Assembly: GCA_000934665.2 (NCBI GenBank)
Contig: KZ538696.1
Coordinates: 1 to 53,047 of the forward strand
Direction of reading: 5' to 3'
From: Catajapyx aquilonaris
Lineage: Eukaryota
DNA: 53,047 nucleotides
In this document: in pieces, positions 12,271-39,842 of the stretch
Layout: every line of letters starts with the position of its first letter
Numbering within the stretch: position 1 is the stretch's first letter
The notes under the pieces: generated by a model
Seen by the model: only the letters and a program-made list of their open reading frames with translations
The model's database searches: none
Told to the model about the DNA's origin: nothing
Position numbers and translations under genes: made by a program

Positions 12271-15200
12271 TTACGGGTTCTGTGGGGGAGCGGTACAGTA
12301 CACCGAACTATTTTTCCTAAATTTTCTAAGTTAACTTCACTCCGGTGCAGAGAGTCAAGGTTATTGGGTAAGGATAGGCGCTCCATTATGGGGGTGGAAT
12401 ACCACCATTTTACAACTCAGATTTTCTGTAATTTTCTTCACACCGTGCAAGGGAGAAAGGGACATGTGGAAGGGAAATAGGACTTTTTGGGGAGGGGACA
12501 TGGGTGCAGGTGCAATGTCTCAAGTTTGGGCCATGTGCAGTCCCGCCCCAGGAGGTTAGGTTGCCAGACACCTCCAAGGTACGGGTCAGAGACCCTCCTG
12601 ACGCAGGTGAAAGGGAGCTCCCAGGCAGGGATCGAACCAGGGACATTTCACTCAACAAGCCATCTCGGCCACCTCACCTCCCCCATATTGCTTATATGCA
12701 CACTGCAGGCTATAGCATAATAAAAAATGAGTTAACTAGGTTCTACCTATTCATAATTATAACAGTACATGTCAACTTATCGATTGCCTCTGGATGAGCC
12801 GTGTTCAGCTTCCAACGACATGTTTTCCAATTATTAACTAGATGCACATTATCACCATAATTTCAGTGTGACGAATAAAACAACAAGTGGGGCTTGAATA
12901 AATTACATAATATTACAACAAAGGCGCAAATAAATGTCATCAACCATTTAAGCTAAACATTAGAGCAATGTTTCTTGTCTCAATAGCCTACTAGGAGAAA
13001 TGTATGAATTGGGTCTAAAATGGCACGCCAACAGCATAAAAGGACATGTTTTTTTTGCAGTATAAGCGTGTGGAGGAAAGAAGATGAAATTCCCGATATC
13101 ATCCACGCAAGGAGGGGTATGGCAAGAGCTATTCAATGAAGTTTCTAGAATTGGGTTTGACATCCCACACTCCTTCCTTTCAATTTCATCCTACGCCTCA
13201 TGCTGAATACAAAAGTCTTACAGTTCTTACAAGGCCGGTATATATGGAACGCATCCGATTCACATGGCAAATAGAGACACCAAATACAACATTACGTATA
13301 AGGGAGCACTATACCATTAGAAATCATCATTGAAATTCCTCAGCTTTAAGAGCCACCATTTATTGCACTTTTAATTAATATTTGAGGCAAGTAGGGTTGA
13401 AATATTTGTTTGCAGTACATTTTCATCTCCAAAATTAGGCTTTTTTTATATGGTTGTTGTGATAGGGTGTACTGTACGTCAGCAAAAATGTATTAGACAG
13501 CTCTCAGGTGTTCAGTAGGCCAAATATTCGGAAATTGGTTTAGGTTGCATGATTTTCGTGAGTTATAAGTAAGCTGATTTCAGCCAATATTGAGCTGAAC
13601 ACGCACCACGATTGGCTATACCAGCCTTCCAGTGCAGTTTTCCTGATTACGTAAGATTAAAGTAAGCCAGAATGTAGGTCGCAGGGAAGATCACATTCTG
13701 CATGTATCAACTTTCCATTGTAATCACATTATTATTATTATAGGACAAAAAATTCTTCTAGAGCTTATGTGGCAATATACCTGCGGCTACGTTGATATAA
13801 TAGAATATGGTTCATCATAGTGTAAGTTACAATGAAAATTGATACCTAAATAAATATGACTTATAATATTGTGTTTTGGTTTCGACCTCATTTTTATATT
13901 CCTTCCTTATACACGTAGCATTCAATTTTGATCTCTCGAAAATCAACAAGTCATATTCCAGGTAGTGTCAAAAACCCGTTTCACTGCGGGGGCTTGAACT
14001 CTCAAGTGATATACCCAAAGCTTCACTGCTGCTGTTGAAGTGCCAGATCCCAGGATATCAATGTTTGAAGAAGGAAATTGTAGAGAAAAAAAAAGAAAAA
14101 AAAGAGAGAGTTCCGCTATATAGTCTGGAGCACGAACTTGAGTTCCGCCAAGTGAAATTTTCATCCTAGCATTAAAATCGGACCTAAAAAAATACTTCTG
14201 ATCTATGCACTAGTAAAGTGGAAGTTAAAAAAAAACCTCCATTAATTCTAACTGACAGTGCATTAGTAGTTAGGTCAGATTTATGAGCCCGTTAAATTCA
14301 GTGGAGGTCGCTACACCAACAATGCAAAGAATGGTGCTCCGGTACGCTAATTGACTGCATTATCGTAAGGGTGTCTAGTTGTCAAACTTGGTCTTCCGGG
14401 TGTCCAAGAAAGATAGTCCATTACTCCAATCACATTATGGATTCCTGGTAAACATCGGCCATTAAATGTTATCCCCGGATTTCAGCCTTGATTTATTTAT
14501 TTTTCAAGCCCCCCCTGTAAGGCGCAAATAGGATAGAACGGGGCGTAAAACCTATTAAACGCACTGTTAAAGTACACATTTTGTAAGGAACTTTCAATAA
14601 GACGGTGGGAAGATATACAGCGCAAACATTTCGTGGAGTCGATAACTGGAGGCTGGTCCAATCGATAGCTTTGAAGAAAAGAAGGAACAAAAGGGAAGCC
14701 CTTTCAGGATACAATCAAAGAGCTTACTTTCCAAATAGAGACATTATAACACTGTCTATGAAAACCTATGCACTTTGCTATTGTGGATATATAATAGGCG
14801 ATATAGGCACGCTTCTAAAGTCTTGCACTGTTTAGGCTGTGAAAGTGGGAGTATGCCAGCTAGTGTGTAACTTAATCACTGTAATACAGCATTTCAATTA
14901 ACATAATTATGAACGTGTTCAGATAATCGGATGTAATCAGGAATGTGTCATAGTTTGCCACTGGCTGACAGCATGCGATGTTGCCGAGCCTTTCCTTGTT
15001 TCAGGTGCAGTGATCAACTTTAAAAGGGTAAAACGACGACAAAATATTATAAATTATTGCCACTTTCTATAGGCATAAAATTGTGAGTAGTAAGTTACGT
15101 TACAACTATGTATAATTCACGAAAAATTGCCGCCTTGTTATTTTTTTTCGTTGTTTATTATTGCCGGAACTGCACACTGCCTTCATGCTTGAGGCAGTTC

Positions 15201-16444
15201 TTTCATTACACCAAAACAAAAACGGCGGAAAGTTTGGCCTCCTTGGTCATAAAATATCTTAGGATAATTTGTATTTCAGGATACCGTACCAGAAGAGGTA
15301 GTTATCCGACACATTCAAAACTTTTTATGGCGTGAAAGGGGCCAATGGTTCAATGTTCAACGTAGCCATTAGGAGAGTTGATGGCCATATTCTGATGGAA
15401 TAATAATAAACTAAATTAAAGGAGTGGTATATTGTTGTTGCTTAGCTTTTTCTAGTCTGTAGTGACAATAAATAGGTTTAATTATCTTGAGTACGGAATC
15501 TGAGGAAAATACGGTTTTAATGGGAGAAGCAGATATTTATTATGCCAACCTCTTCAGAAATGGTTTCCCTTTTCTGGCGTTATATTGTTTATCATAATTA
15601 ATTGCTTTTCGGTTATATCTTATATTAAAATTATGTAAGAAAAATGACCAGTGTGTAAAACCAAGCATGCACCGCTTATTATGCCTACTGTGGTCACGAA
15701 ACAATTTCAAGTATTTTGGGTGATCATAGTCACCATACTCTTTCGAACTGCTTGTGACCTAAAATTGTCCTACGGGTGTTAAAATTGCCCATGTCTGCAC
15801 CAGCCTTAAAGTACATCAATGGAAAATAAAATAAGAATAAATGTGTCACCATATTCCCCTCTTTTCCCAGGTGCCCTCTTTCAGCCGATATACCCTGAAA
15901 TATGTAATTAAGCACTTTAATTTTCATCTTGAATTTCAGCCACAATTTACACGGAATACCCTCTGTCGGTTATTAGGTGCAGGATTCATGTTACGAAAGT
16001 ACTGGAAACAAAGTGTCCCTATAGCTTCTGTTCTCTATAATTATTATATAAAGTGATAAGATATTGTGGTCTGTGTTTAAAAACGGCTTGCCAAATGTAA
16101 CTTATCGTATATATTGTAATGGAAGGTATATATGCTTCGCTTTGAATCAATCGCTTTCAGTGGAAGATATTCCCACCAAAAATCTGTGGAACAAATTAAC
16201 ACAATATATGCTGGAATTATGGAGAATTTTGGCAGATTTCAGGGGTAGTTCTGAATTAATAAGTGGTATTGTTACTTGCTTGGTCACGGTTACTCTGGTG
16301 CGCAGCAAATACCAAAAGACAACGACACCCACGTGAACTCAGCTTAATTGACTCCGACACATGCCACCTTGACAGACGGTCTTGGTTTCAATTTAAAACT
16401 CCCGGAGCAGTTGGCCCAGAATGACACCAGCAGCTCTTTTCTAA

Positions 16445-17074
16445 CACTCACAAGGGAAAAACCAAGGTCGGTCGCCTCCGATTTCGTTGAAACTCGCTTG
16501 AGGGATCACTCATGTGCGATAGACACAGTGGAGAAAGTCCTAGATGCCACTGTCCATCCGTTTCCGAGATATGAGCTACAGAAACATCCGAATTTTGGCC
16601 GCGCGTATAGGGGCCTTGATGGGCCTTGCACTTGTCCCTTCCCGCTCGACACCTGCACAGTGTTGGGCATTAATCGCGTCATGCTGCTTGCGACATTTTC
16701 TGATGCGGAAGAAGTGCAAATCGAAGTGATAGGGTGTGAGCCGTGCGAGTAAGAAGAGTGTCTTTAGTGACGTCACCGGTTGGGGGTCAATGTAGAAAAG
16801 GCTTGTCCCCCAGCCAGTGACGTCACTCAAGGGCTACCATTTCTTACTCGCCCGGCTCGCACTCGATCACTTCGATTTGCACTCCTGCCGCATCGAAAAA
16901 TGTCGCTAGAAGTATGACGGCCAAAATTCGGATATTTTTGTCGCTCGTATCTCCGAAACGGCTAGACAGTGGCATCTAGGACTTTCACCACTGTGTCTAT
17001 CGCACATTAGTGACCCCTCAAGCGAGTTTCAACGAAATCGGAGGCGACCGACCTTGGTCGTTCCCTTGTCAGTG
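16445..17074. mobile_element. CACT-ended foldback MITE (CMC-like) hosting a nested MITE
   Basis: About 155-bp inverted arms CACTCACAAGGGAA... / ...TTCCCTTGTCAGTG; no clear TSD. Confidence 0.8.
16658..16920. mobile_element. CAGTGTTGG-family MITE lacking its right tip
   Basis: Homologous to 41552-41815; right end fuses to the host arm at GACGG/CGGCCAAAA. Confidence 0.8.
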
Positions 17075-17573
17075 ATGCGAGTGGCATCACACCGAAAGGA
17101 GCAATAAGAATGTTTCTGTGTAATCAAAGTCTATCAGCAGGCCGCAGCTTTCCTTCTCCTCCCAAGTTTGGGAATGCTATTTCGTGGAAAATTCCTGTTG
17201 TCATGTCCCTCCACTGTTGCGGATTACGATCCTCCCGAGCCCAAACTCTCTCGGCCTTTTCCCCAAAGAATCCTGGTGACTTTAGCTATAATTGGGGAGA
17301 CAAAGAAATCCGACCTTGTGTCAACAAACCCATCAGTCCTTCTCTCTTCCGTCCTGTTGACAATGTTGCAGTTGGATAGCATGACAGTAAGGGTTTCATA
17401 TTTCCCTACAGCTTCCTTTCTCAGCCGGTACAAAAATCGATACACTAAATAGTTTTTGGGACCCCCACCGTCAACTGACTTGTGGTTAGTGTTTCATATG
17501 TGGATACTGTATAATGTATGATGGTTGTATGGGGATGTGCATCTAATTTTGTGAAACTGAACTTATTGTACTA

Positions 17574-18132
17574 CTAGCTGCGGCGTTGCCCGGGAAGAAA
17601 TGAATGAAGGGAAAACACCTGCCAGTACCCCCGTCAACTGTCTGTCTTTCTGTGTGTCCGCCCACCAATGTCATCTGTGGTCCTGCTACTCCAACACCTT
17701 CAACCTCTCCCGCCTGCATAACGGCAATTTGCCTGACATCTGTAGTCAACCCCCAACACCTCCATCCTCTCCCGGCCTGGGGGTGGAGCACAGATGGCAG
17801 GCAAATGACGGTTGGCAGGCGCAGGGTCCCCTACATGGTTGCCTCCCCCACCCTAACCAGGGTATTGTCTTCACGTAGTCCTTATGCAATCTATCTCCAA
17901 TATGGCCGCCCCATGCTGCAGGATAGGGAATTGGCAAGCGATTCGTTTTTGTTTTTTTCAATTGTTTTTTTTCACTGCATGTAGCTCCTACGTGAATTAG
18001 CTCCAATATGGCGGAGAGACAATACCCTGTCTAGGTGGGGGAGGCACTCATGTAGGTGACCCTGGGCAGGCGGACAGACAGACAGAGAGGCAGACAGACA
18101 GACATACTCACAAACGGCTTTATTTATATAGA
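17574..18132 (-). mobile_element. Non-autonomous Helitron, copy 2, interrupted by a hAT MITE
   Basis: A|TC...CTAG|T termini on minus strand, same body as copies 1 and 3. Confidence 0.88.
17822..18064. mobile_element. hAT-type MITE
   Basis: CAGGGTC...GACCCTG termini; perfect 8-bp TSD GGCAGGCG (17814-17821, 18065-18072). Confidence 0.9.
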
Positions 18133-18429
18133 TCTGACCTCCCTAGGGCCGTGGTAGTGTTCCAAGTAAACCAACAACCTGTTCAGTTTATTAGACTAAC
18201 CTCCTCTCCGGCTGTCTCACGACTACCTTCAACTTCAAGCGGGAAGGTCCACCACCCGATATTAGTGGGCCTATCTGACATCCCCGCTTCCCGCCATCTG
18301 TTGGCAAAACTACCAACTCACAATCTTATAGATGCTGGTGTGCCACAATACACATGATTATAACTTGAGGTTCGCGCGGCATAAAATGAATTCGCGAGTG
18401 ACAAACGCTTGCTCCGAAGTATTGAACGA

Positions 18430-18690
18430 CATTATCGCCAGTGGTGAAAAATCACAATGATATTTTTGCACAAGTTGAGTGAATAAATCAAAAAAGACGA
18501 TGGTGGGAGTTGCGACTGGAAGTCCTGCTCTTCCTCGATAACATTTTCAACCCACACATCACATGTTTCACGGTCTGCGGATCACGCTCAAACTCTTTAC
18601 TCGTCTGCCCTATTCATCAGCTCAGGCCGCGTCAAACTTCACCTCTTTGCCAAATTGAAGAAACGCCTACGTGTATTAAGGTTTGATGGT
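18430..18690 (+). pseudogene. Decayed mariner transposase fragment
   Basis: VLLFLDN (cf. LLHDNA) and, across a frameshift, LPYSSAQAASN/HLFAKLKKRLRVLRF (cf. PPYSPDLAPSDFHLF..LK..LRG.RF). Confidence 0.75.
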
Positions 18691-20532
18691 GGAAAATTTT
18701 CAGCATGAGATATATCTACTGCGAAATTCTGTTGTTAAATTAATGGGCCGGAGAGCAATATTTTAAACTCAAATGGTATAAATCAGGAGCCAGTATGACA
18801 CGTTTTTATCGTAACTTATTCTCGAAATATAACCAGCGGCACTATTTGCTTTCAAAAAAAAATAAAAAATGTTGCGATTTGGCTCTAAGCCACCCTATCT
18901 TCACACATGACGTGAGGAGTTGGACGCTGACATGGGTTTTACATGTCTCTAAAGTTGCCGCTTCGTATATCGTGACTCATTGCTTATACTTCTTGGCTAT
19001 GACAAAAATTAGCATTGTCATTGATGTCCCATCTTGTCTCTAGTCTACATAGTTAACTGTTAAAAGATCCCAAAACAACCATTCATTAAGATAATGTCAG
19101 TAGGCAATCGTTATACCTGTTAAAAATTATGAAATAGATTGTCATGTCAAAGCTAAATGTTTATATTTAAAGGCACTGTTTCATGGATTCATTATGTTCA
19201 GCATTGCTCAGTAATGTTGCATAATAGAGGACAAAACGTTATTGTGAAAAGTTTTTGACAAACTGCTGCCTTTAAAAATTAGTTCCATTCATTTTACAAC
19301 AGAGAAGGCTTGAATGTATCTTAAAGGATGTCTTTCACAAAGATTTCAAGAGTACAAAATAACCTGTTTTGCACTTTGAACCACAGGAAAGGGAAATTTA
19401 ATCTGTGAGCTTAAAATGACTCTGAATTCTATCAAAGGGACCATACAGTATATTGGTGTCAGTACGCTCCGGTTATTATACCTTCACCTCATGATACTGT
19501 AAGCTTCCTGTTCAGTATATACTCTCTGGTAGGTGTTCCTAAAGGTGCGCACTTCCTGAGGTGCCTTGAAACATTCCAAGATAAAAAGTGAAATTAATAT
19601 TGACGATTGTGCCTTCATTTCAGAGATAATTGCCAATTATTTTTCCTGTGCATTCAAATCTACAACTGAGAATATCCTATACGGTCGTAATGCATATAGA
19701 CTGATTATTTCCATAATCCACAGAGCCGGTAATTTTGTTTTTAAATATAATTTTTATTCTACAAGAATTATGTTCAATGGCGGCTTTGGACAAATGTGTT
19801 TGTCTGAATGAAAAGTATGTTCCATTTCTTTTCGGAATAGAACCTGTTGAGAACGGCAAAAGATTGTTTTGTCTTTGCCCAACAAAAAGTGTTCAAGTGT
19901 TTAAAATATGGCAAGCACGCAGTATCAGAAGAAGTCTACTCAGTCAAGTCGTCATTGTTGACTTATAAAGAAGCTCCAACGTTTGTGACCGGAATGAGAA
20001 AAGGAAAAAAAGGGATCATATATCAGTGCCGTGCTTAGGATGGATCAGTTCGAGTTCGATTTATACTTTAAGGATGGGTTATCAAACTTTACTCACATAA
20101 GACCGGATAACACTGCGGCAAAGTGTAGAAGAGTCTACAGTATATAATAAGCACTGGATATCTTCTATGGTATTCTCTGTCCCGAGGGTTAAGGCAGAGA
20201 TCAACAACCTCATTATATGAATGCAACCCACTCCGGATCCCCCACCGCATAGGTTGGCTTACAGGTAACCACAACATATTTACAAATGTTGCAGTAACTG
20301 TAACTTCGGAACAAATCTCGTCCCTTAATTATAATAAATTAAGCGTACGTAAAGCAAGGCTAAAATTAAGGTAATGTAACAATACATAATATTTTGAGAG
20401 AGTGCGAGCACAAAGTAAACCCGCAAAATTCATGCATAATGGCCAAAGCATTACCACCGAAGTTATAAAGCGAAATTCATAATGTGTACACTAGGTGCGG
20501 GGTAGTTCCTTTAATCTTCGTTGCAGAATATA

Positions 20533-20736
20533 CAGGGTGTTTCAACTTTTTTGTCCGAACAGTTATCAGAAATATTGCACTATAAGCTGCTACTTTGTAA
20601 GCAGCGACTTGTAACCGGTTTGTCGGAGGAATGGGGAATATTCCCTGCGAATCTTGGGTTGAAGTGGCATACACTGCTTACAAAGTAGCAGCTCAGTGCA
20701 ATATTTCCGATAACTGTTCGAACAAAAACAAAGTTG
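20533..20736. mobile_element. Deleted copy of the 8015-8345 mariner MITE family
   Basis: TA|CAGGGTGT start and shared arm sequence TTGTCCGAACAGTTATC; right tip missing. Confidence 0.8.
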
Positions 20737-21440
20737 CCAATATTTTTCTACCACCCTTAATTAGTAATATGGCAATAGTTTAAATATCCTGAGTATCCAG
20801 AAACAAAAACGTTTTAAAATACTTTTACCATTAAAACGCAATAAGCTGTGGGCCGTCGTTCCTATATAAAAGTATTCCCCACATCAGGAATGTCCCCATA
20901 ATATATATCCCCCCAAAACTTTAAGGAAGGTTTGGCCCTCCCTTAAACTTTGTTTGAAGTAACGTCACGAGTTAATGGCAACAAGCAAAGAATTTTCTTT
21001 CCAGAAGTTGGAGCGGAATTGGTGCGGAAAGCCCGAAATTAAACGAATTATCATTTTGTGCAGGATCGATTTCCAACTCTGCTTCCTGCCAGCAAGTAGT
21101 TTGGCGAATTCCCAGGAGCGTCGCTACTCGATAGATACCAAGCTACTGAACGCCCTCGCTCTATCGGACCTACACTCCGGATTCGGAAGGTCATAAGTTA
21201 TGACTCACTTTGTACTGTACCTGGCTTTTATTTTTTTTAAATGGTGTAATGACGTCACTTAGAAAGAGGGTATTAACTTTATTCGCCTCAGAGATGAATG
21301 GTGCTATTAAAAACTGTAGTAAATCACTATGTCTATTTGAGAGCGAAGTTAACGCCCTTCTCAGCTATAAAAGGCGCTGAAGATATTACAGAAACGAACT
21401 ATTCTGGCCAAAGATGATTCTGGCCATAATATGGCCAGAA

Positions 21441-21536
21441 TACAATTGCATTTTAAAAAAATAGCCATCAATTTATTATAACGTCTACATATTATTTAGA
21501 CGTTATAATAAATTGATGGCTTTAAATGCAATTGTA
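21441..21536. repeat. AT-rich inverted repeat/hairpin (possible tiny MITE)
   Basis: TACAATTGCATTT...AGCCATCAATTTATTATAACGTCTA / TAGACGTTATAATAAATTGATGGCT...AAATGCAATTGTA. Confidence 0.75.
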
Positions 21537-21983
21537 GCGTTTTATGAAACACCAACTTTAAGTCCATCAAAACCTTGGGATGCGCCACAGCCTTCAGGGA
21601 GTAGCACTGTACAGTATATATTTTGAAGTGAAGCATGAAGTGAATAAAGACGAGGATGTAGCTTCAGGTGACTCTTCCAGGTCTTGTTCTCTCCTGTGCA
21701 CTCCGTCACAGCTGATGCCCATCAGCAGGACTTTTCTGATACCGGTAACAATATTACCCGGACGTCAATGGCGATCAACGCTGAAGGGGATCTAACTTCA
21801 ACTACTTCCTTTATGTCCCAACAATTTTTTTATCGGCTATGTTAGATGAGCTTATAAGGATTGTTGATTTTTAGGTCAATAATTCGACAATTTCGTGGTT
21901 TTAATGGTCAGTGCTTGATTAAAATAGAGTGATAAATTTCATTGGGATTAGTTCAATCCACACTGCATGCTTTGTAGTCCTAC

Positions 21984-22073
21984 CTTGACATTTTTGGAGT
22001 TGGGGCTGGTCACTTGAACCGTATCATCTGGTTGTGTTCTCCACTCGTTCTTTCCCATTGGTTGAGTTTGCAT
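21984..22073 (-). CDS. Putative coding exon segment (MQTQPMGKNEWRTQPDDTVQVTSPNSKNVK); exon 21984-22096
   Basis: Acceptor TTACAG| at 22097, AAGATG start, 30 open codons, phase-0 donor AAG|GTAGG. Confidence 0.45.
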
Positions 22074-24460
22074 CTTCAAACAGATTTCTATTACACCTGT
22101 AATGCAATACTCAAAATAAAGCAACTGATACAAGTAAAATAACAGCAATAAAAAGAGAACAAAAATTATAAAAAAACTAAACAGTGAAAGTAATGGAAAG
22201 TAATGAGTCGAGCAAAACAATATTATAACTTCACATTAGGGCGTTCAAAACTTGTTGCGTGTCCACCATGGGCGAGGCATTTTTGCATAATCCATGAGCT
22301 GAGTTTTGACGGTTCTCTGACATGTCAGCACAGCAATATCGGTAATTGGAAACCGGAACAAGCATCAGCAAAGAACAGCATGCTATGCTTACAGGTCATA
22401 CACGCCTAGCTACGTCGCCGACCTATAACCGCAATTTCAACTGAACATACGCTGTACCCTAATACGCGAAGGGGGCGAAACCCCACAAGGGAAATCGGGG
22501 GCGAAGCGAGTATGCTGTAATATACCACTAAGTATAGCGACACTTCTTCCAACTTATTCTGAAAAGGTCAACTTCGGCACATCAAAAAATACTCGTTTTC
22601 AATACTCCTGCTGCCATTTCCGTTATGTTTGGCCTCACTGCACATGCACTTCAGATAGCAGCTTCAAACCACTTTATAGACACCATTGACAGTTTGCAAG
22701 TAAAAAGTTTGAGGGAATAGAAGTCATCCGTATAGAACGTACGTAGTTTGGTTGAATGGGTCTATCCTCCCAGGCGCCACATTGTCTGTCTATCTGTACA
22801 ACGCCCGCCCACCCCCTGCCGAGCTCCGTCCTTAATCTAGGTACGACGTAGTCTGGTTGGGACTCCAATTCGAGAGGTCCTCAAACATGATACTTGGAGC
22901 ACATGCATACCTCCAAAGCTGAACAATCAGCGGATCCTAGTGTTCCCTCTGGTTATTACCTGACATATCTTCCCGCCTCTAAGTATTGCCAACCCTGGCC
23001 TTAATCATCCCATTGAGAACTGGGAGCCACTCCAAGTTCTGAACTTCAATGGGCTCATTTACCTCCACACAAAAAATATTATAAAAGAACAAAAGACGTC
23101 TATCCATCCTTCTTCCTCCTTTGCTGAGCACACCTATTCTGACAGGACAGGTCTGACAATTGGGGAGGAATTTGGTGATATATTACTTTCAGTTTCACGA
23201 CCGTACTTGCGAATTAGTCATAAGATAAGCCCTACATATTCATCGATTGTTGTATGCCCTAATTCATTCGTTAGAAACGTTTCAGGCAGGATTATTATTA
23301 AAGGTACGACCTGCACTAATGTAATGTGGTCCGCACTTTAATTATAGCGACAAACACGCGAATTCAATATTGCTGTCAGACGGTGTGACACGCGAAGGTG
23401 TCTTAAATTTTTTTCTGGTCATGATGCAACACGTCATACGAGTAAATTGTGGGCGTTTCGTAATTAGAGCAACAAACTTCTAGGGTGAACGCCTGTGAAT
23501 CAGGGGGTCACTTTATGAAAAGGTGTCATTTCGTCTTCGCAGTTTCGTTACCCAGATAATGAGCTAGACATTAAATATCCTGGTTAGGTATGCATCCCTC
23601 CAAGCGACCTGGTCTTTTTATTTATAATTAAGGTGTTACAATACAATTTTAAGTTAAATTGCGATCTCGCATCAGGAGTCGATAGAAGCAGCGAAACTGC
23701 GCAGACCATAGACACCTCTATAAAGTGACCCTCTGGTGCCCAGAAGTTCATTCTATAAGTTTGTTTTACTAATTATAAAACACCCTCTAGGTACAGTAAC
23801 AGTACAGTAACAGTCCTGCAATGCTGCAAGAGGTACTATCTGTCACAAAAAGTTTTGGCCGAAAATGAAGGGAAAAGTCTTGAAGCAACCCTTCACACAC
23901 ACACACGCACCTCCTTAACGTGGGGTCTGTGCGAACGGTTGCTTCAAGAACTAAAGTAGCCAAAAGTATTTGAACCCGATAGTACACCGGAGTACCAAAT
24001 TCAACAAGGGGTTAACCACCTATAACCCTATAACCCTATAACCGATAATATATAACCGACCTATAACCGACCTATAACCTCCCAGGTATGAGGTACTCCT
24101 TAACCCAGATATGCCGAGTGTGCCCTATAGGGGACACCTGCACAGTTGTTACATTTTAATATTTTTGCGCAGGTTCTTCTGCTGCTAAAGAGCTGGCAGT
24201 AGTGATGGGGGCTTCAGTAGAGTCCCAGCTAACTATACCAGTTCAAACCGGCTCAATATTGCTTCAGATTTTTAAGATACAGGTGTTTGAATTTTAACGC
24301 AGGAAATAATGTCTGCACCTCCACGTTCCGAAGACGATTAGTAATTAATTCTCGAATGTTGATTAGCAGTGTGAGTTATTTTTTGTTTGTAATACTTAGA
24401 AAACTTATGAATGATGATGTCGATGCGGAAATATAGACATATTTTTTACTTTCCTTGTCT

Positions 24461-25998
24461 GTGGGGGAGATCAACTATAAGCTCACGCGAAAAGAGGGAG
24501 AGTAACTGGGGGCTGGAGTGAACCCGGAAGACCGGAAGTGGCGAGTCACCGGAAGTTGACCATGACACCTATTTAGGTCACGCTTAATCCGCATGTGAAA
24601 ACCGTTTGTCTCTTTCTTTTGCGGTTGAGGCCCTGATACCTGTCCACAGACGGTCAGACAGAGCCGTTCGATAATACTTTTTTTTCGATTACGAGAAAAA
24701 GTCTAAAATTTATCCTCCTGATGTATACGCTTTGGTTATATTCGCTCAAATTCGTTTCTTTTTTATCGGGGAAGAGAGACAAGTTTGATGGCTCTGCGAG
24801 ATGGCGCATATTTTAGAATTTTTGGAAAAATACCGGTAAGTGTTCAATAAAAAATTCATTTTACACCATCGATGTTTGCAACATTTTCGTGAATTCGTCG
24901 AATTTTTTCACCACAAATAGACGAGATAACTGGTTTCTTTCCGCATTAATTACAATTAAACGAACATAATTCATAAAGGTGTAAGGGTACCACTACTACA
25001 TATGACATTACATACCCCAGGGTCAGGACCCTGGTATGTAGTGTGGATGCACCACATTTTAATGATTATGTTTGATTATGAATTATTTAAAAATTTTGCC
25101 ACAATTTCCCATAGGCTTTATGACTAGCCAGGCAGTTTGGGTCTCCTCTTGTGGAACCTTCTCCAACTACCCGTCTGCGGCATTCATGGAAAAATCAGAT
25201 TGTTTACTCTTCGGACTAAAATTCTGCAGAATTTTAGTCAACTGTTGCACCATCAATTGAACCTGTACAGCGACATTTGATTTTCCCCACATTTTTTGAT
25301 ACAGAAATTGTGACAAAATATGTAGAAAACATATTTTGTCACAATTTGTCGCAATATTGTTTACTCTTCGGGCTAAAATTCTGCAGTAAACAATCTGATT
25401 TTTCCCCAATTGCCGCAGACGGGTAGTTGGAGAAGGTTCAACAAGTGGAGACCCAAACTGCCTGGCTAGTCATAAAGCCTATGGGAAATTGTGGCTAAGA
25501 TTTTAAATAATTCATAATCAACCATAATCATTAAAATGTGGTGCATCCACACTACATACCAGGGTCCATGACCCTGGGGTATGTAATGTCTTATGTAGTA
25601 GTGGTACTTCCACCTCTATGAATTATGTTCGTTTAATATTGTAATTATGCAGAAGAAAAACCCAGATATCTCGTCTATTTGTGGTGAAAAAAATTCGGCG
25701 ACTTCACGAAAATGTTGCAAACAACCATGGTGTAAAATGAATTATTGAAATCTGCGCTATCTCGCATTGTAAGTTATGCCTCTCATGTCCTTACAATAAA
25801 AAGGAAATTACATGTTCGGGACTCCTCCATTGAGTCACCTGGAAGAGGCTATTTCAATAGAAAATGAGAGGAAATGTTCTCTTTTCACTAAAGTTGCGCA
25901 AATAGGAGTCAATTTTGTACAAAATGTCTGTCTGGAATTAGCTAATTTTTCACATATTTAACCCTTGGACGACTACGGACATCATATGATGTCTTAAG
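24461..25998 (-). repeat. Inverted duplicate of 45408-46958
   Basis: Colinear reverse-complement match over about 1.54 kb with scattered substitutions and small indels. Confidence 0.95.
24795..25766. mobile_element. About 970-bp foldback palindrome (second copy at 45679-46632)
   Basis: Arms of more than 400 bp, TGCGAGATGGCGCA... / ...TGCGCTATCTCGCA. Confidence 0.85.
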
Positions 25999-27339
25999 TA
26001 CTTTACTCTTTGGTACTCCTTGGTACTTCTTGGATTTGGTACTCTAGTGTACACTTTACAGTCCAGTGGTTAACCCCTTGAAATTCAAGGAGTACCAAGG
26101 AGTACTTGGGAGTACCAAAGAGTACCTGGGAGTACCAAGGAGTACCACTGCAGGTGTACACCGGAGTACCGAAGTGCCCCCATTGAATGTAGCACATGTT
26201 TACTTATATTAGATTCTGAAATTGGCGAATATCGTCAATTATTTTATATGCCAAGGCAAAGACTGCGGAGTCCTATGAAGCCTGTAGTATGTCTTCGCTA
26301 AATCTTCGAATGATTTATGGTCCCGGAATTACACGGGAAATTGTCCCCGCGTCATGACCTGCATAGTTTGTCGATTCTCTCCTCGTCTGCAACTTGATCA
26401 CGAAGACCGCCACTATCTCTGGGTTATGACACTGCGTATACGTCACCCAATCCCTGGCACTTGGATAGCAAAATGCAAAATCGGTTATGTGACATCCTGG
26501 CAACATCTACTGTCACGCGAATGTTCCTTCAAGACCTTCTGACTAGTTCACAATACAAATGCACGTGTACCATTTTTACGCTGAAATAGACATCATTAAT
26601 GAGCCGATTTTTATGCTACAAATTAGAATGTAGCAAATCACCAAGGTCACTTGTGACACTTTTCATTTTCAAAGCGAACGAGTATTATAAGTTGTGTGTT
26701 TTATTTCTGATGATCACTCATCCTGCGTCGTCAACACTGGCTAATAATAGCAACTAAGTGGTAGTATAGTCATGAGGGTCAACTGTAACAAAGTGTTTAT
26801 TTTAAGAAACGCTTGGAAGAGGTGTACATGTCTTCTGGGTCTTAGGTTCCCTTCAAATTTATGAGACGGAAAGCTTTAGCTTATTTGGTCGGTATTGGCT
26901 GTTTCACAGAAACTACTGACCCTAGTAGCGGAAGTACCTTACTCATGGGGTAACTTGTCCACGCTTAACATTTTAGAGACGTTACCATGGTAGTTACCCC
27001 TGGGACAATTTAGCTCCTTTGTCCATGCTAGGGACTAATTCGGTACGTTATTTCCGACAATGTGACATTAAATTTTTGGGCAGCAACTACAGTATTTTTA
27101 ACCAAAGTGTTCTAGAACTCAGAATAGATAATCACAATTAACATGTTGTAAAGCTACCAATGTTTTCCGTGTAAATTAGGAATAATAATGTCACAATAAC
27201 TTGCAGTAGCAGCATTCCGCGTTGGCACATCTTAAAGAATTTTTTAAATGTCAAATGAATCCAAGTAACAAATCGATAAAGGATGCTCCAAGGGATGCTC
27301 CAACTAGGAAGGACCACTGAGATTTACAAAAGTCCTGCT

Positions 27340-27959: not shown

Positions 27960-28489
27960 GCTTCTTTTCTGTTACCATAAAGTATTCGGTTACTTGCACG
28001 TCTACTGAAAAGCAGTTAAACGAATAAATAAGCAGTTGGACCACCCTGAATAGACGGAATATGACAATTGACTCTAGTTAGAGTAATTGCCCCCAGTCGC
28101 TCTCAGAACAAAAGTTCTCATAAAAGATACACCAGACGTGTATTGTACAGTCACATGGGTCCAATGTGTTGCAAGGTTAGCACTTCCCTTAAAAGGATTG
28201 GGATAAAACTGCAGAAAACTTGGTGATCCTAAAAGGTACCGGTATTTACAGATATTTACTGAAAATATAGTAATGTAGCTGGGAATCTCTACATTGTGTA
28301 GTCCAAAATGCAAGGTCGTGTTGCCAGAAGGAAGTTTTTAAACCTTATCAGAGAACGAGGACCTACAGTATATACATTCAGTTTGGCTGACCTTTTGGTT
28401 TTGGTTTATTGCCAAGCATACAGTTACATTATGAGTTATGGTAAATTTATTCAAGTTGCATCATATATAATTCGATATAATTATTATAG

Positions 28490-28688
28490 TGTCACAGTTA
28501 GAAACACTGCTGGGCCTCGTCCGCCTTCCTCTCTTCCCCATCCACCTGAGGGCCACTTGGGGAAGGAGGTGTTTGAAGGACCTTTGGGCTGCATAGTTCA
28601 ACAATAAATCTGTGTTAGTGTACGCCGAGACTATTACAAGATTGGTTCTGTGTGAGCCGGGTACCCACGAGGTCCTGTCCACCTGACA
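28490..28688 (+). mobile_element. Candidate solo LTR
   Basis: TGTCA...TGACA termini, internal AATAAA near 28603, GC-rich in AT-rich flanks, near-TSD ATAG/GTAG. Confidence 0.5.
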
Positions 28689-29639
28689 GTAGGAAAACAT
28701 CCCTCTCCACAAATCAGTCCATCTCCAGCCATTCTTAATTATTTGACAACGACTACCTCATTTCACTTCTCTTTCCATGCTTATCTGTTACAATCTTACA
28801 TCTAATATAATGATCGGGTTGTAAATATCAATATTCCATTATCCTAGTGATTCCATAAATCTAATATTATATTTCTTTTTTATATTTCACTCTCCAATTT
28901 TATTCATGGGAATTTGAAGCCCGAATAAACAATGTAGGGGAAACCGGGGGACAGTTTTAAAAATATAAGAAACCGGAATAATGTCTTCATCTGGTACCTC
29001 GTGAAACATGTCACTATTGTGCTTCTTGCCAATATGACAGCCACCTGTGAGATGCCTGCGATCCTGCTGTATCAGGGGAAATCTATTTGAAGGGCAGCGA
29101 AGTAACTTCTAACCCACAGTTTAAATGCCATGTCAAGCGTAGATGCTGCTGGGCATGACCTGGATGTAAAAATGTTGTTGAATATGTCATCCTTTGTCCA
29201 TAAATACTGGAAATTTGGAAAGCGTCATTTGCAATGGAAGCTACGATTCATAACATCATGTCAGTTGCTGCCTTCTGGGATACAGTGGTCCATGGACCAG
29301 TGAGCACCTTTTTGTGGACGACCGTTTTGCCTCTGTACAGTACGTTGTCATGAAGTGCCCTAGAATGGCTCTAAAATAGCGCCTCTTGTACACGCAACTT
29401 CAAACAGTTTATTGGGCGACAGGAGACAGAAAACATTCGCTAACTGCGAGCACTCGTCAAGTGAATTCCTTGCCAACAATTATGGTTAATTTTAATTCAG
29501 AATCATAACAAAAATAAGCCAAATTGCTACTACCGTATGCATAGGCATAAGATAAACTAGTTATGTGTAACACCACTTGGGCATGTTGTCAAAGAAGGCT
29601 GCTCAGTGCTCATTGTTCCATATCACTTTTATTTATTTG

Positions 29640-29933
29640 CTAGCTGCGGCACCCGGAGTTGCCCGGGAAATGAAGGGAAAACACCTGCCAGTACCCCCCG
29701 TCAACTGTCTGTCTTTCTGTGTGTCCGCCAACCAATGCCATCTGTGGTCCTGCTACCCCGACACCTTCAACCTCTCCCGCCTGTATAACGGCAACCGTCA
29801 TTTGCCTGCCATCTGTATTCAACCCCCAACACCTCCATCCTCTCCCGGCCTGGGGGTGGAGCACAGATGGCCGGCAAATGACGGTTGGCAGGCGGACAGA
29901 CAGACAGACTCACAAACGGCTTTATTTATAAGA
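29640..29933 (-). mobile_element. Non-autonomous Helitron, copy 3
   Basis: TC...CTAG termini, (GTCT)n, 3' GC hairpin; same body as copies 1 and 2. Confidence 0.85.
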
Positions 29934-30314
29934 TTTTAAATTTCAATCTCTCTTGCAGCTTTTGTCTCCTTGAGGCATTCCATTTTTGTCCAAACCGTGT
30001 CTATTGAGTTTAAGTTACGGATATTGGGAGACCACGTATGGATATCGTTGTCCTCCAGACACTTTTTGGTTGTCCTTGCTGTATAGCAAGCAGTTCCATC
30101 AACAGGAGCAATTTGACTGCCACCGTAGGGCCAAAATGCCCCTCTATACAGTACAAATAGACAACGTCATAACATCATATTTATGCACATTTTAGTTGCC
30201 CTTTTCCATATTTCAACTGGGCACATTTATAGGGCCAGCGATTTATTCTGGGTTAGGGCAAGTATAACTAGATCATCGTTCTGTCTGTATGCAAGAGAAA
30301 GACGTCGATAGATA

Positions 30315-30373
30315 CAAGTACTGGTAGTTGACATGTTGACATGTCAAGTACTGGTAGTTGACATGTTGACATG
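30315..30373. repeat. 30-bp tandem duplication
   Basis: CAAGTACTGGTAGTTGACATGTTGACATG(T) twice. Confidence 0.9.
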
Positions 30374-31480
30374 GTGAAAGGTGCACATTTTGCGAGTGCA
30401 ATTAATTGCTGAGTGCGATTTAGCCCATGGTATTAGGGTCTCGTCATCTAGTGAGTCAGGGCTTGGGTTGAATTGACGGTAGTGGAACTATGATGGCAGT
30501 AGGGATATGTGAGAATGATATTTTTTACATAACGATTTTTTAGGTCGAGTTGCACCAACGAAAGTAGATCTTCGAGAGAAGTAGGTGTATTATTGTTATA
30601 TGAGGACAACAGTAATCTTAACAGTTAATAAGGAGAGCGACTCCTCGGTCCACAATCTTGTCTCATTGATACAACAGCCTTATAAAAAATATGAGATGGT
30701 GAAAGTTGGGTGAAAGAAATCCATCCTTTCGTCTCACTTTTTGTTATGCAATCCAAGAATATAGAGCAAAGTCAATTATGAAGGTTTGTCGCTGGATTTT
30801 TTTTTGCACTTGACTCCCAGGACATTACATGAAATGAAAAATCTTTTGGAAGAAAAACCATGCCCTACGGAAATCCACCATATGCATACCAAGCAACCAA
30901 ATCCAGCCGTGTGTTCCATTCAAGTGCCCGTTGCGGTTTTCAATATTTTTCACAAGCGAATTATTTTTAGCAGTGTTTTATAATAGCTACTTTTAGACGT
31001 TATCAAAAAATATTGGCTGCTAATGTTAGTGTGTGGAACCATTAGTTTTCAAGTCTGCAAAAGGAAAGTTATTTCACCAACCATTCACATTTGATATTTA
31101 TTTATTCAATTTCTGGCATGCGGTTCTGAATTTGTGCACATTATTATGCCCTAGAAAGGTTTAAAAGCCTGATAACATCATTTTACAATCTGCACAATAG
31201 AAGTATGCAGGAGGTGGGAATCGCGACATTTTTTTATCTGTCGGTTTCCTTGGATGAACTGATTCGGCCTTAATCCCGAGAACATTAAATATGCATTAGA
31301 ATCCTACTCAAGTTTTGGCATGCCTCACTTAACGATCCGCACAATGGTAATGGTAAAAGTTTGCGTGTGGGGCGACACCAGTATTTTTGAACTCTCATGT
31401 TAGCTAATACAGTGAACCACCCCAGTGCAACTCCGTTTTTTTCATATAGGTTTCCCCCTCCGACCCCCGTGACTTTCGAG

Positions 31481-31660
31481 CACCCTTCGGACACTACCTC
31501 TACGTTCTTATCTTATCTACTGCCGGGGCGTTTTGCATGAGGTGCTCACCTGAGAGCGCCATGAGACCTTTCACGGAGCAATCATGTGGCGACCCTACCG
31601 GACCGCGCTGAACTTTATAGGTACAAAAGGGAATCGCTACATTGGAGGACCCAACATGGA
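31481..31660. mobile_element. Single arm of palindromic MITE family Y (see 47330-48640)
   Basis: TGCCGGGGCGTTTTGCATGAGGTGCTCACCTGAGAGCGCCATGAGACC shared with the 47.4-48.6 kb copies. Confidence 0.8.
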
Positions 31661-32380
31661 AGGCAACAGAAGGGGAGTCTATACTCTATAGTGTCTATAC
31701 CTTGTAAGATGCAGGATATACAGTGTCGAAGTATTTCTGATCCAATAACAGTCTCCAAAACTCTTTTCCGAGAGCCGCTTGAGAGAGCTGAAGTTGTGCC
31801 GTCAGTGTCACCTCCCTGCGGCTGGAATTGGCGGAAATTGGAATCTTACTACTATTCCCCCTTCCATTCACAGATATGGCGGACTCTTTACTTAGTTAGA
31901 AACTGGTTAACTGCGTTCTAACCCCTGGTGGATTCCCGATTGGAATTGGACCCACGCGGCGGGTAGTAGTCAGATGAGTGACCAAGTACATTGCTGCCAT
32001 CGGCTAGTAAGGCGACTACCCTCGAGGAGCATGGTTTCAACCACGAATAAGTGGTGAAATGCTCGCTTAAATAAAAAATTTATGTGGTCTTTATCACTAA
32101 AAAAATGTATTGCCAATGAATGGTGCTATGAATGCGGAGTTTCTGAGAAAATATCAAACAACTGCAGAGATCTCTTGTCACCGGCTGGGAACAATTCACA
32201 AAGGAGCATTATTTATTATGTATGTTGTTAGTCTCAGTTCAGTGGATGTTACTTTTTTTTTCCTTTTGTCTCAGAGGCGAAATGCATAAGTAATATAGCC
32301 CTATTCTATCTGTTCGCCTTGAAATCGATTTATGTCACACTTTTACATGATGCTATGGCTCAAACTTCCTGTTCAAATAA

Positions 32381-33655
32381 CACTATGCAACATGATATTA
32401 TCTTGTCAATGGAAATTCATCACTATTTTCATGTTACTTACGTCACTCATAATGGTCATTCATTTTGTCTGTAATTTCTTTTTGACCTCGGGGCAGTCAA
32501 AATAGCAAAATCCTCAGTATGTAGGAGTTATACCTAATCAAGTGGGCCGAAATGGTGCTAGACCATCTTGGATTTTGCTAAAGAAAATTACGGCTGTAGG
32601 CTACACACCTATGCCATAACTCTGCATATCAAGTTTGCGACAAATTGCGCAATACCGTGGGGAGGGAAAAAAATCGCTGAATTTTGGAAATGAGGCTTTT
32701 TTTGGATCATTTTTTTCGGTTAGTGGAAGTGGTCAAAACCCAATCAACATACCGGTATACGAGATATAGTACAACAAATTAAAGAGAAACACAAGGGGAA
32801 TGCACCTGTGAAATTTGTTTTCCACTAAAATGTAACCGGAAAACGTGTGTGGCATTCCATCGGTCGCATGCCGAAAAATTTGGGTCCTTGAAAATTAATA
32901 GTAGGCCTATATCTGTAAAACATATCTATTATTTTCTCGCGAGCTACGCATGAGCCGAAACTGAACATATATTAAATATTGTATGGGTCACAACTCATGT
33001 CACCAATTGCTGCGGTTACGCAAATACATCACTAATTGTTGGGGTCTAAATACGTGGACATGTGACTGCGCATGTGACCTATGGAATGCCACACATGTTT
33101 TTATGGGTGCATTTTAGAAGAAAACCAATTCATAGGCGCATTCTCCTCGCGTTTCTCTTTCATTTGATGTATATGTTGATTGGGTTTTGACCACTTCCCA
33201 AGGGGTTAGCAACTCCCTGGAACCGGTGTACACACTGGCCAAGGAACCGGCCTGGAACCAGATGGAACCGGCTTGGAACCACCCGGTGCCAGGATCTGGT
33301 GTACACTTTTTTGGGGAGTTGCTAACCCCTTGTCACTTCGACCCAACAAAATTCTCCAAAAAATGCCTCATTTCCAAAATTCCGCAATTTTTTCAATCCC
33401 CACGGTGTTGCGCAATTTGGCGGAAACGTGATATGCAGAGTTATGCTGCGATTTTTTCCAGCAATATCCGATATGGTCTAGCAGCATTTCGGCCAACTAC
33501 ATTTTGAGGATTTTGGTTTTTTGACTGCCCCTAGGTCAAAAACAAATTTCAGACAAAATGAATGAGCATTATGAGTTACGAGTGACCTAAGGAACATGGA
33601 AATAGCAATGAATTGCTATGGACAGAAAAAAATTTGATTTTTGTTGCATATAGTG
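32381..33655. mobile_element. Old CACTA-ended long-TIR foldback element (CMC-like)
   Basis: CACTATGCAAC...GTTGCATATAGTG termini; about 490-bp diverged inverted arms; another left-end fragment follows near 33668. Confidence 0.8.
33199..33332. mobile_element. hAT-type MITE (CAAGGGGTTA family, related to 24005-26080)
   Basis: TIR CAAGGGGTTAGCAACTCCC; degenerate 8-bp TSD CCACTTCC/TCACTTCG; internal GGAACC repeats; absent from the opposite arm of its host. Confidence 0.85.
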
Positions 33656-36451
33656 TAGTAATAATTACACTATGTAACAAAAATCAATTTTTTTCCTGTT
33701 TTTCAATTATTGAAGTCCAGTATAGGTATACCGGAAAATGATATTCCCTGGAATAACACCCTAACAAGAGAGAATGTATAGAGATCGAATCCAGTATCTG
33801 GTCTGGAATATGCTTACGTGACTGTCAATTGTCCGTTGAACTGAGAGCGCTGCCACACCGGAACTACTGCTTCTCATATAAACAATTGAGTCCCGTATCC
33901 AGCGTTAGCTATCGTTCCTTCCCATACAAATCTGTGTTTATCGTCACCCGATCGGAAACGCACCGCTGCTTTTAGGCTCCGAAAGGCTATACCGCTAAAT
34001 CCCAACCGAAACTCGCACGATGCAGCCTGGTCCTAGTGACTTATCCCTAAGCTTGTGTCCACTGTTGAACGATAAAGTCAATTAATTTGGCAAAAATAAT
34101 TGTTAATTGGGAAACATGTATATCAGTCTCGTAATTACATGGCAGAACTCGTACGAGAAGATTGGGTACTGGCGACGATCCAAAATGATCTGACCTTCAT
34201 GTACATGGCTACATCAGTACCGGATGACAAGCCGGAAATGTGGAATGATGTAGGGTTGCTTAAGTGCATAATTAAATTCGTCACCTCTAATGAACAATAA
34301 GTAGTAGCAGGCAATATACTTAAAAGCTGGGTACAGAAGCACAGCAACAGTGTGGCATGCTTGTCGACAGAGATGGCCAAATGGATGTGGGAAGTCACTT
34401 CTTATTGGATAGAAGATTGAGTTACGTATATGGAGCTTTGGCTGTCAGTCCTGGAGGATCAACCAGAAACAAATCGTCGCAAATCCTTTTTGTGATACGA
34501 GGTCTACTAAAATACTAAAATAGGAGACATAAATTATCAAAAATTAATTGCACTCGACCAATGCTACAAAAATTGCAATTTTGGTCGAGCGAGATATCTT
34601 GAACAATATGCAGGGTGGTTATAAAATGTGATATCAGCACAGGCATATAACGCCATTTTATGCCGAAAAGTCCTGCAGCATTTGGACTTTAAAATTATAG
34701 CCAACAGTAAGCCCCCTACAGGCCTGCTGGAGTTTGGGCAAAACTACATTTAATTGTCGATTCTGGTCAGCAGTGATTTGTCCAAATGTGATGTCCAGTA
34801 AGGACTGAGAAAAATGCTTCACAAGTCTAGTTTGACATGATTAAATATCAGTGTACCTAATCGTACGAATAAATGCAGATCAGAATGTTCAGTGTCACTC
34901 GTTTAGTACAAATTAAAAGACCGTAAAAGAAAGGCAATTTGGAACGTGTGTATTTCGCGTAACAGTGGCACGTTGAAATCACCGTTATTTATGCCTTTAT
35001 TGTCTGTAATTTGTACTAAACAAGTAGTACTGAACATTCTGATCTTCATTATGTGTACGAATAGGGCATATACTGACACATAAAAACACGTCAGACTTTG
35101 CTGGACCACAAGTTTGGGCAACTGACCAAAATCGCTATTTTGCGCTTCGCCCGATCTTTAAATACAATAGCTGCCATTTCATCAAAAATTTCCGAACTAA
35201 AGAGTACTATTCACGTATAATTATTGTAGTGAATAGCCAAGCAAATATGAATCAATTTCTTATCTAATTTCAATAAACTCGCACAAAATTTACTTCGAGT
35301 AAATGATGCGAAAGATTTCACAATATTTTCAAATGTAGTAGACTACAACGTAATCAAAGATGCACAATGCATTCGGCCTATAATTGCATGCGTAGTAACT
35401 ATGTTTTAAACAAGACGACGTCGCGTCACGTCTTTCTTCAAAAAAATTGTCTACCAACAGCGAACAAAAAAGAGCGCAATAAGCATTTTGTTACAGGGTC
35501 ACGATTCAGTGAAACCCCCTGCATTGACCAAAAAAAACAAAACTAAAAGAGCTCTATTACGTGTAATAGCGTTTCTTTTCGTTGGAAAGAAGGGTTCGAT
35601 AGTGGCGCCGGAGCTATATCTCCTCCTTTCAAGACGCTCCTACAACCTATACAATGGGGCATGTAAATTGATTCCATATTTTCAGCTGTCCATATGATTT
35701 CTGTCCCATATCGAAAGTTCTGTCCACCCAACTTTATATTCAAATCACTTGCTAGTATTACAATTTCTTTCTGCATTTTCTGAATCGCTGTTATAAGCGA
35801 CCGTGTACTATTTGATCACGGAACATTTCCGACCTGAAAGTTATCGACCGCTAAAACTTACTCTTCATCGCAATTTCGCCGAGTTTGATAACAGGTTATG
35901 AGTAATTGCTCCTAATTCTAATTACACCTTCCCCCCATCCCCTTTATCCCTAACGCCTTCTTTACTCAGTACCACCCCCCCACCCGCAACAAGCTTTCAA
36001 TCCCTCAGTATGCAAGCTACATGCAAATGAGCACTCTAGGCTCCCATTTTGTCAACTAAAAAACTTGTAATGAAATAGTAAGCCACCGTATCAGGCTGCA
36101 TTAGCCCTATGACGTCAAGTCTCCCCCNTGATTCGGCAGGCTATGGCCCTCCAATGTCCTTGGAGGAAACTTTTGGCACACTCCAACTGAATAGAGTGGT
36201 CCTCTCTATTTTTTTTTTTGTTGTTCATCTTACTCTTCGCTATTTTCTTTTCTAGTCTCATCGCGTGTTCAGCATAAGCCTAAAGTAGACTGAACGTGAT
36301 CAAACGACGACCTGACTGGCTTCAAGGATCTACTTCTTAAAGGGGTTGGGCGGCGACTCATTCCATCGCTATTATCGTCATTTTGCGATATCGTCAGGCT
36401 CGTTTTCCGCTACTGGTCATTAGATAGAAAGGGTTGCTGAGGGGTACTCAC

Positions 36452-39792: not shown

Positions 39793-39842
39793 AGAAATGA
39801 CTACTTAAGAGCACCCTCCCTTGGAAACCTCCCCCCCCCCCC

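Follow-up and report, generated by a model that had tools for sequence, protein, structure and literature searches.

An inverted copy of nearby low-copy DNA within nested hAT-like and piggyBac-like elements on contig KZ538696.1 of Catajapyx aquilonaris

This report deals with a 2076-bp unit at positions 24005-26080 of a 53,047-nt stretch of contig KZ538696.1 from Catajapyx aquilonaris (the whole stretch is referred to as the window). The unit has the ends of a hAT-like transposon and holds an inverted copy of a segment that lies about 20 kb away on the same contig. We consider it reasonably probable that the unit is a nest of three layers, that its innermost layer was captured by gap filling, most likely in place, and that the unit has acquired this cargo without transposition. 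The hAT-like carrier and the nearby, inverted capture had already been recognized in the original prediction, and both stand. However, the copy had been placed in hAT sequence, whereas we find it in the place of the right end of another element, a TTAA-flanked miniature inverted-repeat transposable element (MITE) called L, which is itself nested in the hAT-like one.

The sequence comparisons were those of the window against itself. Copy number and family ends were taken from Logan contigs of four public runs (X1-X4) from one sample and one study, which contain 0.82-0.85 of the sampled words of the region. Contigs were placed on positions 23300-26800 at a likeness of at least 85%, and statements on contigs refer to the pieces listed there, beyond which there are 10,659 further pieces. 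Depth is the summed word depth of the contigs and is a rough guide only. The sample of the four runs is possibly the same as the sample behind the assembly. The window contains a gap of 257 N and single Ns elsewhere.

Anatomy of the nest and direction of copying

The layers of the unit, its host sequence and the donor locus are the following (strand in brackets; TIR, terminal inverted repeat; TSD, target-site duplication):

23997-24004: left TSD copy AAATTCAA, by direct reading
24005-24099 (+): left arm of the hAT-like MITE, with TIR CAAGGGGTTAACCAC, subterminal repeats CCTATAAC and TATAACCGACC and terminal GGTACTCC
24100-24103: TTAA, left target-site copy of L; 45-48 contigs per run start matching exactly at 24100
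24104-24465 (+): L, a piggyBac-like MITE with TTAA flanks and a high copy number; its first letters are CCCAGATATGCCGAG, and its right TIR is missing
24458-25998 (-): filler, the inverted copy of 45408-46961 (self-comparison, BLAST, local alignment)
24458-24515 (-), in the filler: 58-bp left end of the element W, followed by W's target octamer GAGTGAAC at 24516-24523 (alignment with the donor)
24516-24653 (-), in the filler: part of the high-copy repeat R, W's insertion target at the donor (run contigs)
24654-25957 (-), in the filler: low-copy core, including a palindrome of about 0.9 kb
25958-25993 (+), in the filler: TTAA, then the terminus (CCCTTGGACGAC..., 32 bp) of P2, another TTAA family, which is truncated in both copies
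25994-25997: TTAA, read as the right target copy of L; with G25998 it forms the 5-bp microhomology TTAAG with the donor
25998-26080 (+): right arm of the hAT-like MITE, with CTTGGTACTC-type decamers, GTGTACAC and the TIR at 26066-26080
26081-26088: right TSD copy AAATTCAA, by direct reading
26089-26184, with 23987-24004 (+): host sequence of the insertion, an older related MITE remnant with GAGTACCAAG decamers, GTGTACAC and a decayed TIR-like end CCCCCATTG
45408-46961 (+): donor segment; the donor variant is present as separate contigs in the runs
46904-50433 (+): W, hAT-like and complete, with the TIR CAGCCCCCAGTCAC at each end; the inverted ends as a whole are longer and imperfect
46896-46903 and 50434-50441: the 8-bp TSD of W, GTTCACTC

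Direct reading bears out the ends that had been predicted for the 2076-bp unit. The perfect 15-bp TIR at 24005-24019 recurs as its exact reverse complement at 26066-26080, and the perfect 8-bp TSD (8 of 8 positions) lies directly outside both TIRs, as is expected of a non-autonomous element of the hAT superfamily. hAT TIRs start with a YARNG-type motif, and the short TIR found here begins CAAGG. The 15-mer occurs without mismatch at these two sites only in the whole window; with up to three mismatches there are 7 matches against 1.25 expected, a number reached in none of 100 shuffles. The family can be traced beyond this locus at its right end, where 38-42 contigs per run end matching exactly at 26080 and continue into unrelated, random DNA. 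Many copies with a common terminus in differing flanks are therefore seen for the right end, and a left terminus of the family was not seen among the loose ends listed for the four runs. Both arms contain units of the GGTACTCC/GTACTT type, in the 99 bp through the first TTAA and in the 83 bp after the second TTAA, and they are separated by 1,890 bp between TTAA 24100-24103 and TTAA 25994-25997. The hAT-like MITE proper is about 182 bp long (24005-24103 plus 25998-26080). As to a matching autonomous element with a hAT transposase, the analysis covered the window, which holds no open reading frame (ORF) of at least 200 amino acids.

The left end of L is a family terminus, too, since the letters that precede 24100 in the contigs starting there are random (agreement 0.36-0.38 in each of the four runs). 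Contigs of the L family are 85-91% alike and cover 24100-24461, at a depth of 4,000-23,000 in the four runs versus about 21-34 for single-copy DNA. Within the window L occurs only at 24.1-24.5 kb (self BLAST) and is absent from the donor. Of the two TTAA sites that are expected to flank a piggyBac-type element, the left one is flush with the family terminus, and the right one is present at 25994-25997, next to which the right end of L is missing; this second TTAA probably is the right TSD copy of L. Two contigs of X4 match to 24465 and then continue with 23 letters, the last of which are the reverse complement of 24130-24140. On these thin data, the continuation may be the start of the right TIR of L. 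If the right TIR mirrors the left one of 37 bp, L would be about 411 bp long and its last 49 bp would be gone here.

With respect to the superfamily of L, piggyBac ends start with CCC, and L starts with CCCAGA and P2 with CCCTTGG, neither of which is a Kolobok-type terminus. Excerpts of the cited sources describe TTAA target specificity for piggyBac (PMC5381638) and a TTAA target with RR / AG termini for Kolobok (PMC6004289). Kolobok was therefore set aside as the superfamily of L, whose termini fit the piggyBac type better. The 22-nt terminus of L gave 0 matches in a metagenome scan, the collection of which probably does not include this organism.

In the alignment of the filler with its donor, 1466 positions match and 36 do not, which gives an identity of 97.6% at aligned bases; a further 91 gap columns belong to 13 indel events. 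The borders first proposed for the copy (24461-25998 against 45408-46958) were right within 3 bp, and where the copy was said to start about 55 bp inside W and to include its octamer, we found 58 bp and the octamer. In the cargo, W accounts for 58 bp, R for 138 bp and a TTAA element for 36 bp, and about 1.3 kb are low-copy, non-coding DNA that includes a palindrome. There is no ORF of at least 110 amino acids overlapping 24005-26080 or 45408-46961, none of the 15 shorter ORFs of the unit is above the Pfam cut-off (one chance-level match reaches 15.5 bits versus 24.1, E 0.019), and Rfam yielded 0 matches in the window. Cargo derived from genes, which characterizes Pack-TYPE and Pack-MULE elements, was thus not found in the unit. 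An ordinary nested transposon was also considered for the filler and rejected, since the filler has no TIR or TSD of its own and is bordered by incomplete parts of two elements that differ from each other.

The share of indels in this alignment (13 events against 36 substitutions) is high, and several of them are short tandem or hairpin duplications. It may stem from sloppy repair synthesis, which is speculation.

The P2 terminus (CCCTTGG...) in the filler is followed by the second TTAA. This TTAA element had been thought to be complete at 45-50 kb. However, only 36 bp of P2 lie between two TTAAs at the donor (45409-45452), and a partner end was not detected in the window: a 21-mer searched at up to three mismatches gave 2 matches in the window, the donor terminus and its copy; the best local alignments elsewhere in the window scored 23-30, which is noise; and the consensus core of the P2 continuation had one 10-mer match with one mismatch in the window, at 28507, and nothing else. 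Other members of P2 continue differently past 25993, as seen in 14-19 contigs per run with partly conserved letters (agreement 0.57-0.6).

In the copy the palindrome extends over 24850-25746, with arms that are 83.6% alike and parts that are 95% alike (self-comparison). At the donor it is found at 45699-46577 (about 0.9 kb), where the arms are about 83% alike and the centre contains a perfect palindrome of 26 bp. Its low copy number makes it resemble an old inverted duplication of local origin more than a high-copy fold-back transposon.

The direction of copying is given by W. This element is complete, with both TIRs and the TSD, only at 46904-50433, and the copy at 24 kb has its first 58 bp, the octamer and then the flank of W, which is R. 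Other copies of R run straight across the insertion point of W: 29 contigs of X2 match from 24516, and the letters before 24516 in these contigs resemble the donor beyond W, from 50442 on. The W/R junction thus arose once, and the 24-kb copy inherited it. Since the copy holds this junction and W is complete only at the donor, copying went from 45-47 kb to 24-26 kb, after the insertion of W, just as had been proposed.

The interior of W is full of direct and inverted repeats of 60-200 bp. Within it, a 1.4-kb segment (47066-48462) is bounded by inverted CAGCCCCCTGTCAC, one mismatch away from the TIR of W, and may be an element of the same family nested in W.

Copy number, junctions and neighbouring repeats

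The depth of the contigs along the region was as follows:

23300-23533 and 26225-26800, unique flanks: 21-40
23768-24001: 1,668-43,190
24119-24703: 4,012-23,111
24704-25873, ten core bins: 36-194 (about 2-8x single-copy)
25874-26224: 790-27,314

Because the core holds a palindrome, two loci should contribute as many as four alignable arms. Every core variant listed is that of the donor or that of the other palindrome arm. One contig over 24636-24927 carries 8 substitutions and 1 insertion, which are exactly the donor differences, and donor-matching contigs also show indels of 4 bp, 18 bp and 8 bp and the extra hairpin of 37 bp; the variant at 25372 matches the other palindrome arm. A further contig is identical to the window over 24636-24908 (0 differences). 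The core is present as two copies, at the donor and at 24 kb, and both are real at the read level.

The extra hairpin lies at 45611-45679 of the donor, where a near-perfect hairpin duplication of 34 bp makes up 37 extra bp that are absent from the 24-kb copy; the extra letters are also present in a contig of X3. Either a fold-back duplication after copying or a deletion in the copy would explain the difference. Directly to the left of the donor, at 44885-45373, a unit of about 127 bp occurs in two direct copies and one inverted copy, which are 87-92% alike and form a MITE-like cluster.

The possibility that the 1.5 kb are a dispersed high-copy unit, which the original prediction had raised against itself, is rejected for the core by its depth and by the presence of the window's two variants only. 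High copy numbers are limited to the outer ~200 bp and ~36 bp of the filler, and the other copies of those families have different boundaries. The core of about 1.2-1.3 kb thus represents an interior other than a transposable element (TE) with a parental copy elsewhere, at 45.4-46.8 kb, as required for a transposon with captured DNA between its TIRs (Pack-TIR). The mobilised Pack-hAT that the original prediction implied fared less well: there are only two copies of the core and, among the contigs, no composite with another TSD. Among the contigs of this one sample, which make a weak test, the donor and this variant were the only forms, and no evidence of transposition after the capture was found.

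At the right junction, GATGTC-TTAAG-ATTTG in the donor stands against GATGTC-TTAAG-TACTTT in the unit, so that the join falls in 5 bp common to the donor and the presumed pre-event sequence (the TTAA target copy of L plus G). At the left junction, identity with the donor is solid from 24461 and identity with the L family extends to 24461-24465, which gives an overlap of up to GTGGG. The start of the donor tract lies directly beside a palindrome with an 8-bp stem (45413-45431; z -4.2, 0 of 200 shuffles as good). Its end falls within the loop of a hairpin with a 6-bp G/C stem (46951-46967), and this signal is weak (z -1.8, 11 of 200 shuffles as good). Template switching during repair, the class of mechanism originally suggested, is supported.

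A MITE of 134 bp at 33199-33332 (+) is related to the carrier. It is bounded by two of the weaker matches to the TIR 15-mer, has the TIR CAAGGGGTTAGCAAC and GTGTACAC near each end, and its flanks are alike at 6 of 8 positions. The MITE remnant in the host sequence is high-copy to about 26146, and in one contig of its family the position that corresponds to 26176 is followed by a terminal GTTACCCCCTTG. On the other side, a very high-copy short element at 23832-23986 adjoins the insertion site, with a depth of up to 28,000-43,000, whereas single-copy DNA has about 21-34. The two ends of this element seem to be inverted relative to each other (GTACTATC...TTTTGGCC / GGCCAAAAG...GATAGTAC), and at 23986 the match of 30-32 contigs ends with a random continuation (among the rows listed for X1 and X2; none are listed for X3 and X4). 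On a larger scale, a block of about 280 bp is present in three copies (5235-5513, 17603-17857 and 29670-29930), which are 73-97% alike and spaced by about 12.35 and 12.07 kb; the unit described here lies between the second and the third. This spacing suggests a tandem segmental repeat of 12 kb. At 8938-9298, units of 10/20 bp (GCTCTAACATGTCCAGACAT-like) are arranged in higher-order repeats of about 63-69 bp.

Possible origin of the filler

The layers of the nest, the direction in which the copy was made, the small number of core copies and the two family termini (24100 and 26080) are all observed, and from them we infer the role of TTAA 25994-25997 as right target copy of L, the length of the missing end of L, the site and cause of the break and the origin in place as follows. 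A non-autonomous hAT-like MITE of about 182 bp would have inserted into the older, related MITE remnant and created the 8-bp duplication, and L, a TTAA-specific, piggyBac-like MITE of about 410 bp, would then have inserted at a TTAA in the middle of it. A double-strand break at or beside the right end of L may have led to the loss of about 49 bp (the right TIR) on the side of L and of none on the side of the flank. Repair synthesis would have used an ectopic template on the same chromosome, at a distance of about 20 kb, and copied 1.54 kb of it in inverted orientation, presumably beginning at the TTAAG microhomology and switching back to L at the short microhomology (up to GTGGG). The break itself could have been caused either by a one-ended cut of a TTAA-type transposase or by a fork stalled at the inverted repeat of the MITE. 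A more specific version is tentative and rather less likely: a capture across superfamilies, in which a piggyBac-type transposase cut only the right end of L inside the hAT-type MITE, and the patch was taken from a nearby, palindrome-rich locus. If true, the patch is now a cargo that could be moved by a hAT transposase, since the outer hAT ends are still perfect, and nested MITEs of different superfamilies would constitute a route to Pack elements, in which one family causes the break and the other one gives mobility.

A local break is in line with the geometry of the junctions, one of which is flush with a MITE terminus while the other one is 49 bp away; the gap comprises 49 bp of a nest of about 590 bp (~8%). 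This geometry agrees less well with the repair of a gap that arose when the hAT-like element was excised as a whole. Several points weigh against the order of events given above. The depth in the bin 24002-24118 is 1,237-1,908, so that the left arm is possibly much rarer than the right arm and its membership of the family is ambiguous. Neither an uninterrupted copy of the 182-bp MITE nor a full-length L was seen in the window and the listed contigs, and the continuation of L into its right TIR is a 23-letter consensus of two contigs of one run. The TTAA at 25994-25997 is present in the donor, too. A junction flush with the end of L would also be expected if synthesis after a hAT excision had stalled at the inverted repeat of L, and a capture elsewhere followed by a short hop of the hAT element would be indistinguishable from an origin in place; perfect TIRs and a perfect TSD at a divergence of 2.4% suit either history. 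Finally, no piece among those listed for the four runs of the one sample bridges 24458 or 25998.

The last two histories belong to an explanation that we regard as possible, though doubtful. Here, a hAT-like element that already carried L was excised or copied back, the gap repair switched to 45-47 kb, and the product possibly made a local hop as a Pack-hAT. The perfect hAT-type ends and TSD speak for it, as do the true family termini in at least 38-42 different flanks per run and the microhomology at both junctions. Moreover, hAT elements are the commonest carriers of animal Pack-TIRs (208 of 370) in the excerpts of Tan et al. (Nat Commun 2021; PMC8277862), to which all our comparisons with that study refer. 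According to the same excerpts, however, abortive repair driven by excision should give large gaps biased towards the termini (PMC8277862), whereas the breakpoints found here would be only about 49 bp apart on the pre-event element, one of them flush with the end of L and both far from the hAT termini. In addition, the presence of the core in two copies only gives no sign of mobilisation.

An assembly artefact, in which a real second copy of the 1.5 kb was misplaced inside the MITE at junctions among high-copy repeats, appears very unlikely. It would account for the end of the unique contigs at 23862 and their resumption at 26147, for the high-copy nature of about 770 bp to the left and about 190 bp to the right of the low-copy core, and for the missing bridging piece, and the Ns in the window also leave room for it. 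Because the contigs come from one sample and the listed pieces include no bridge, the junctions lack independent confirmation. However, the sequences joined at L|W end and at P2|TTAA|MITE arm have only about 5 bp in common, which is too little for a misjoin by repeat collapse, and the joins should therefore stem from actual reads. Furthermore, the copy-specific contig without differences over 24636-24908 runs into R, and the donor variant forms a separate contig. We thus consider a misassembly at the filler junctions unlikely. Least probable of all is that a single composite transposon of the TTAA type, made up of the 1,890 bp between the TTAAs, used the left end of L and a cryptic right end to move into a TTAA of the MITE. 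An exact TTAA on each side and the genuine family terminus at the left of L are what such a composite would show. Its right end (...CATATGATGTC), however, is not an inverted copy of the left end of L (CCCAGATATG...), and it would need a source locus with L adjoining the middle of the TIR of W, whereas the donor is without L. Taken together, we prefer gap filling at a break in L, most likely in place.

Relation to known systems

The locus is a readable example of how transposon-rich DNA gains local duplications. Donor and copy lie on one stretch of 53 kb, the direction is fixed by the insertion of a third element, and each junction can be placed within a few bases. The locus extends the picture of animal Pack-TIRs to an arthropod-like genome and indicates the ends of nested MITEs as possible sites of breakage. 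The inverted pair of 1.5 kb could in principle mediate an inversion of about 19 kb.

The animal Pack-hAT, as which the original prediction had interpreted the unit, is not a new category. The excerpts of Tan et al. describe 370 Pack-TIRs from 100 animal genomes, with a hAT element as carrier in 208 (PMC8277862). For single-copy Pack-TIRs, 56.9% of the donors lie within 15 kb, with a density that falls with distance, microhomology is found at one or more breakpoints in 67.6%, and the median gap is 4.6% of the TE (PMC8277862). Those authors conclude that gap filling is independent of transposition, for which they compared orthologous sites in primates, and insect reference genomes yielded no Pack-TIR in their study (PMC8277862). 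Since the category and the mechanism are already published for animals, our case is a worked example, in which no gene was created.

Like the single-copy Pack-TIRs of that study, the unit has low-copy DNA between the ends of a TIR element, is itself single-copy and has a carrier of the hAT type. It also shares the nearby donor on the same chromosome, the microhomology at both breakpoints and the small loss of TE sequence. In contrast to those cases, the break would have occurred in a second, nested, TTAA-type MITE and not in the carrier, and the filler is a mosaic of three transposon fragments and a palindrome. The donor, at a distance of 19-21 kb, also lies outside the "proximal" class of less than 15 kb. 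With the Pack-MULE and Pack-TYPE elements of plants, as described in excerpts of Gisby and Catoni (PLoS Genet 2022; PMC8903248), the unit has in common that a non-autonomous TIR element holds foreign DNA between its ends. However, the cargo of the plant elements is gene fragments, and these elements are often mobilised and multicopy, whereas we found neither a gene fragment nor a second copy of the composite (PMC8903248 for the plant elements).

The repair of P-element and Ac/Ds breaks resembles the proposed course of events in a break made by a transposase, in synthesis with template switching and in the preference for nearby templates. Repair of P-element-induced gaps from ectopic templates was reportedly described by Gloor et al. 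in Science in 1991, and filler DNA occurs in Ac/Ds derivatives. These are experimental systems with a known break, whereas the break and its cause would have to be deduced from the junctions here. [quoted passage not shown] These models, however, need no transposon, whereas one junction of our unit is flush with the terminus of a MITE.

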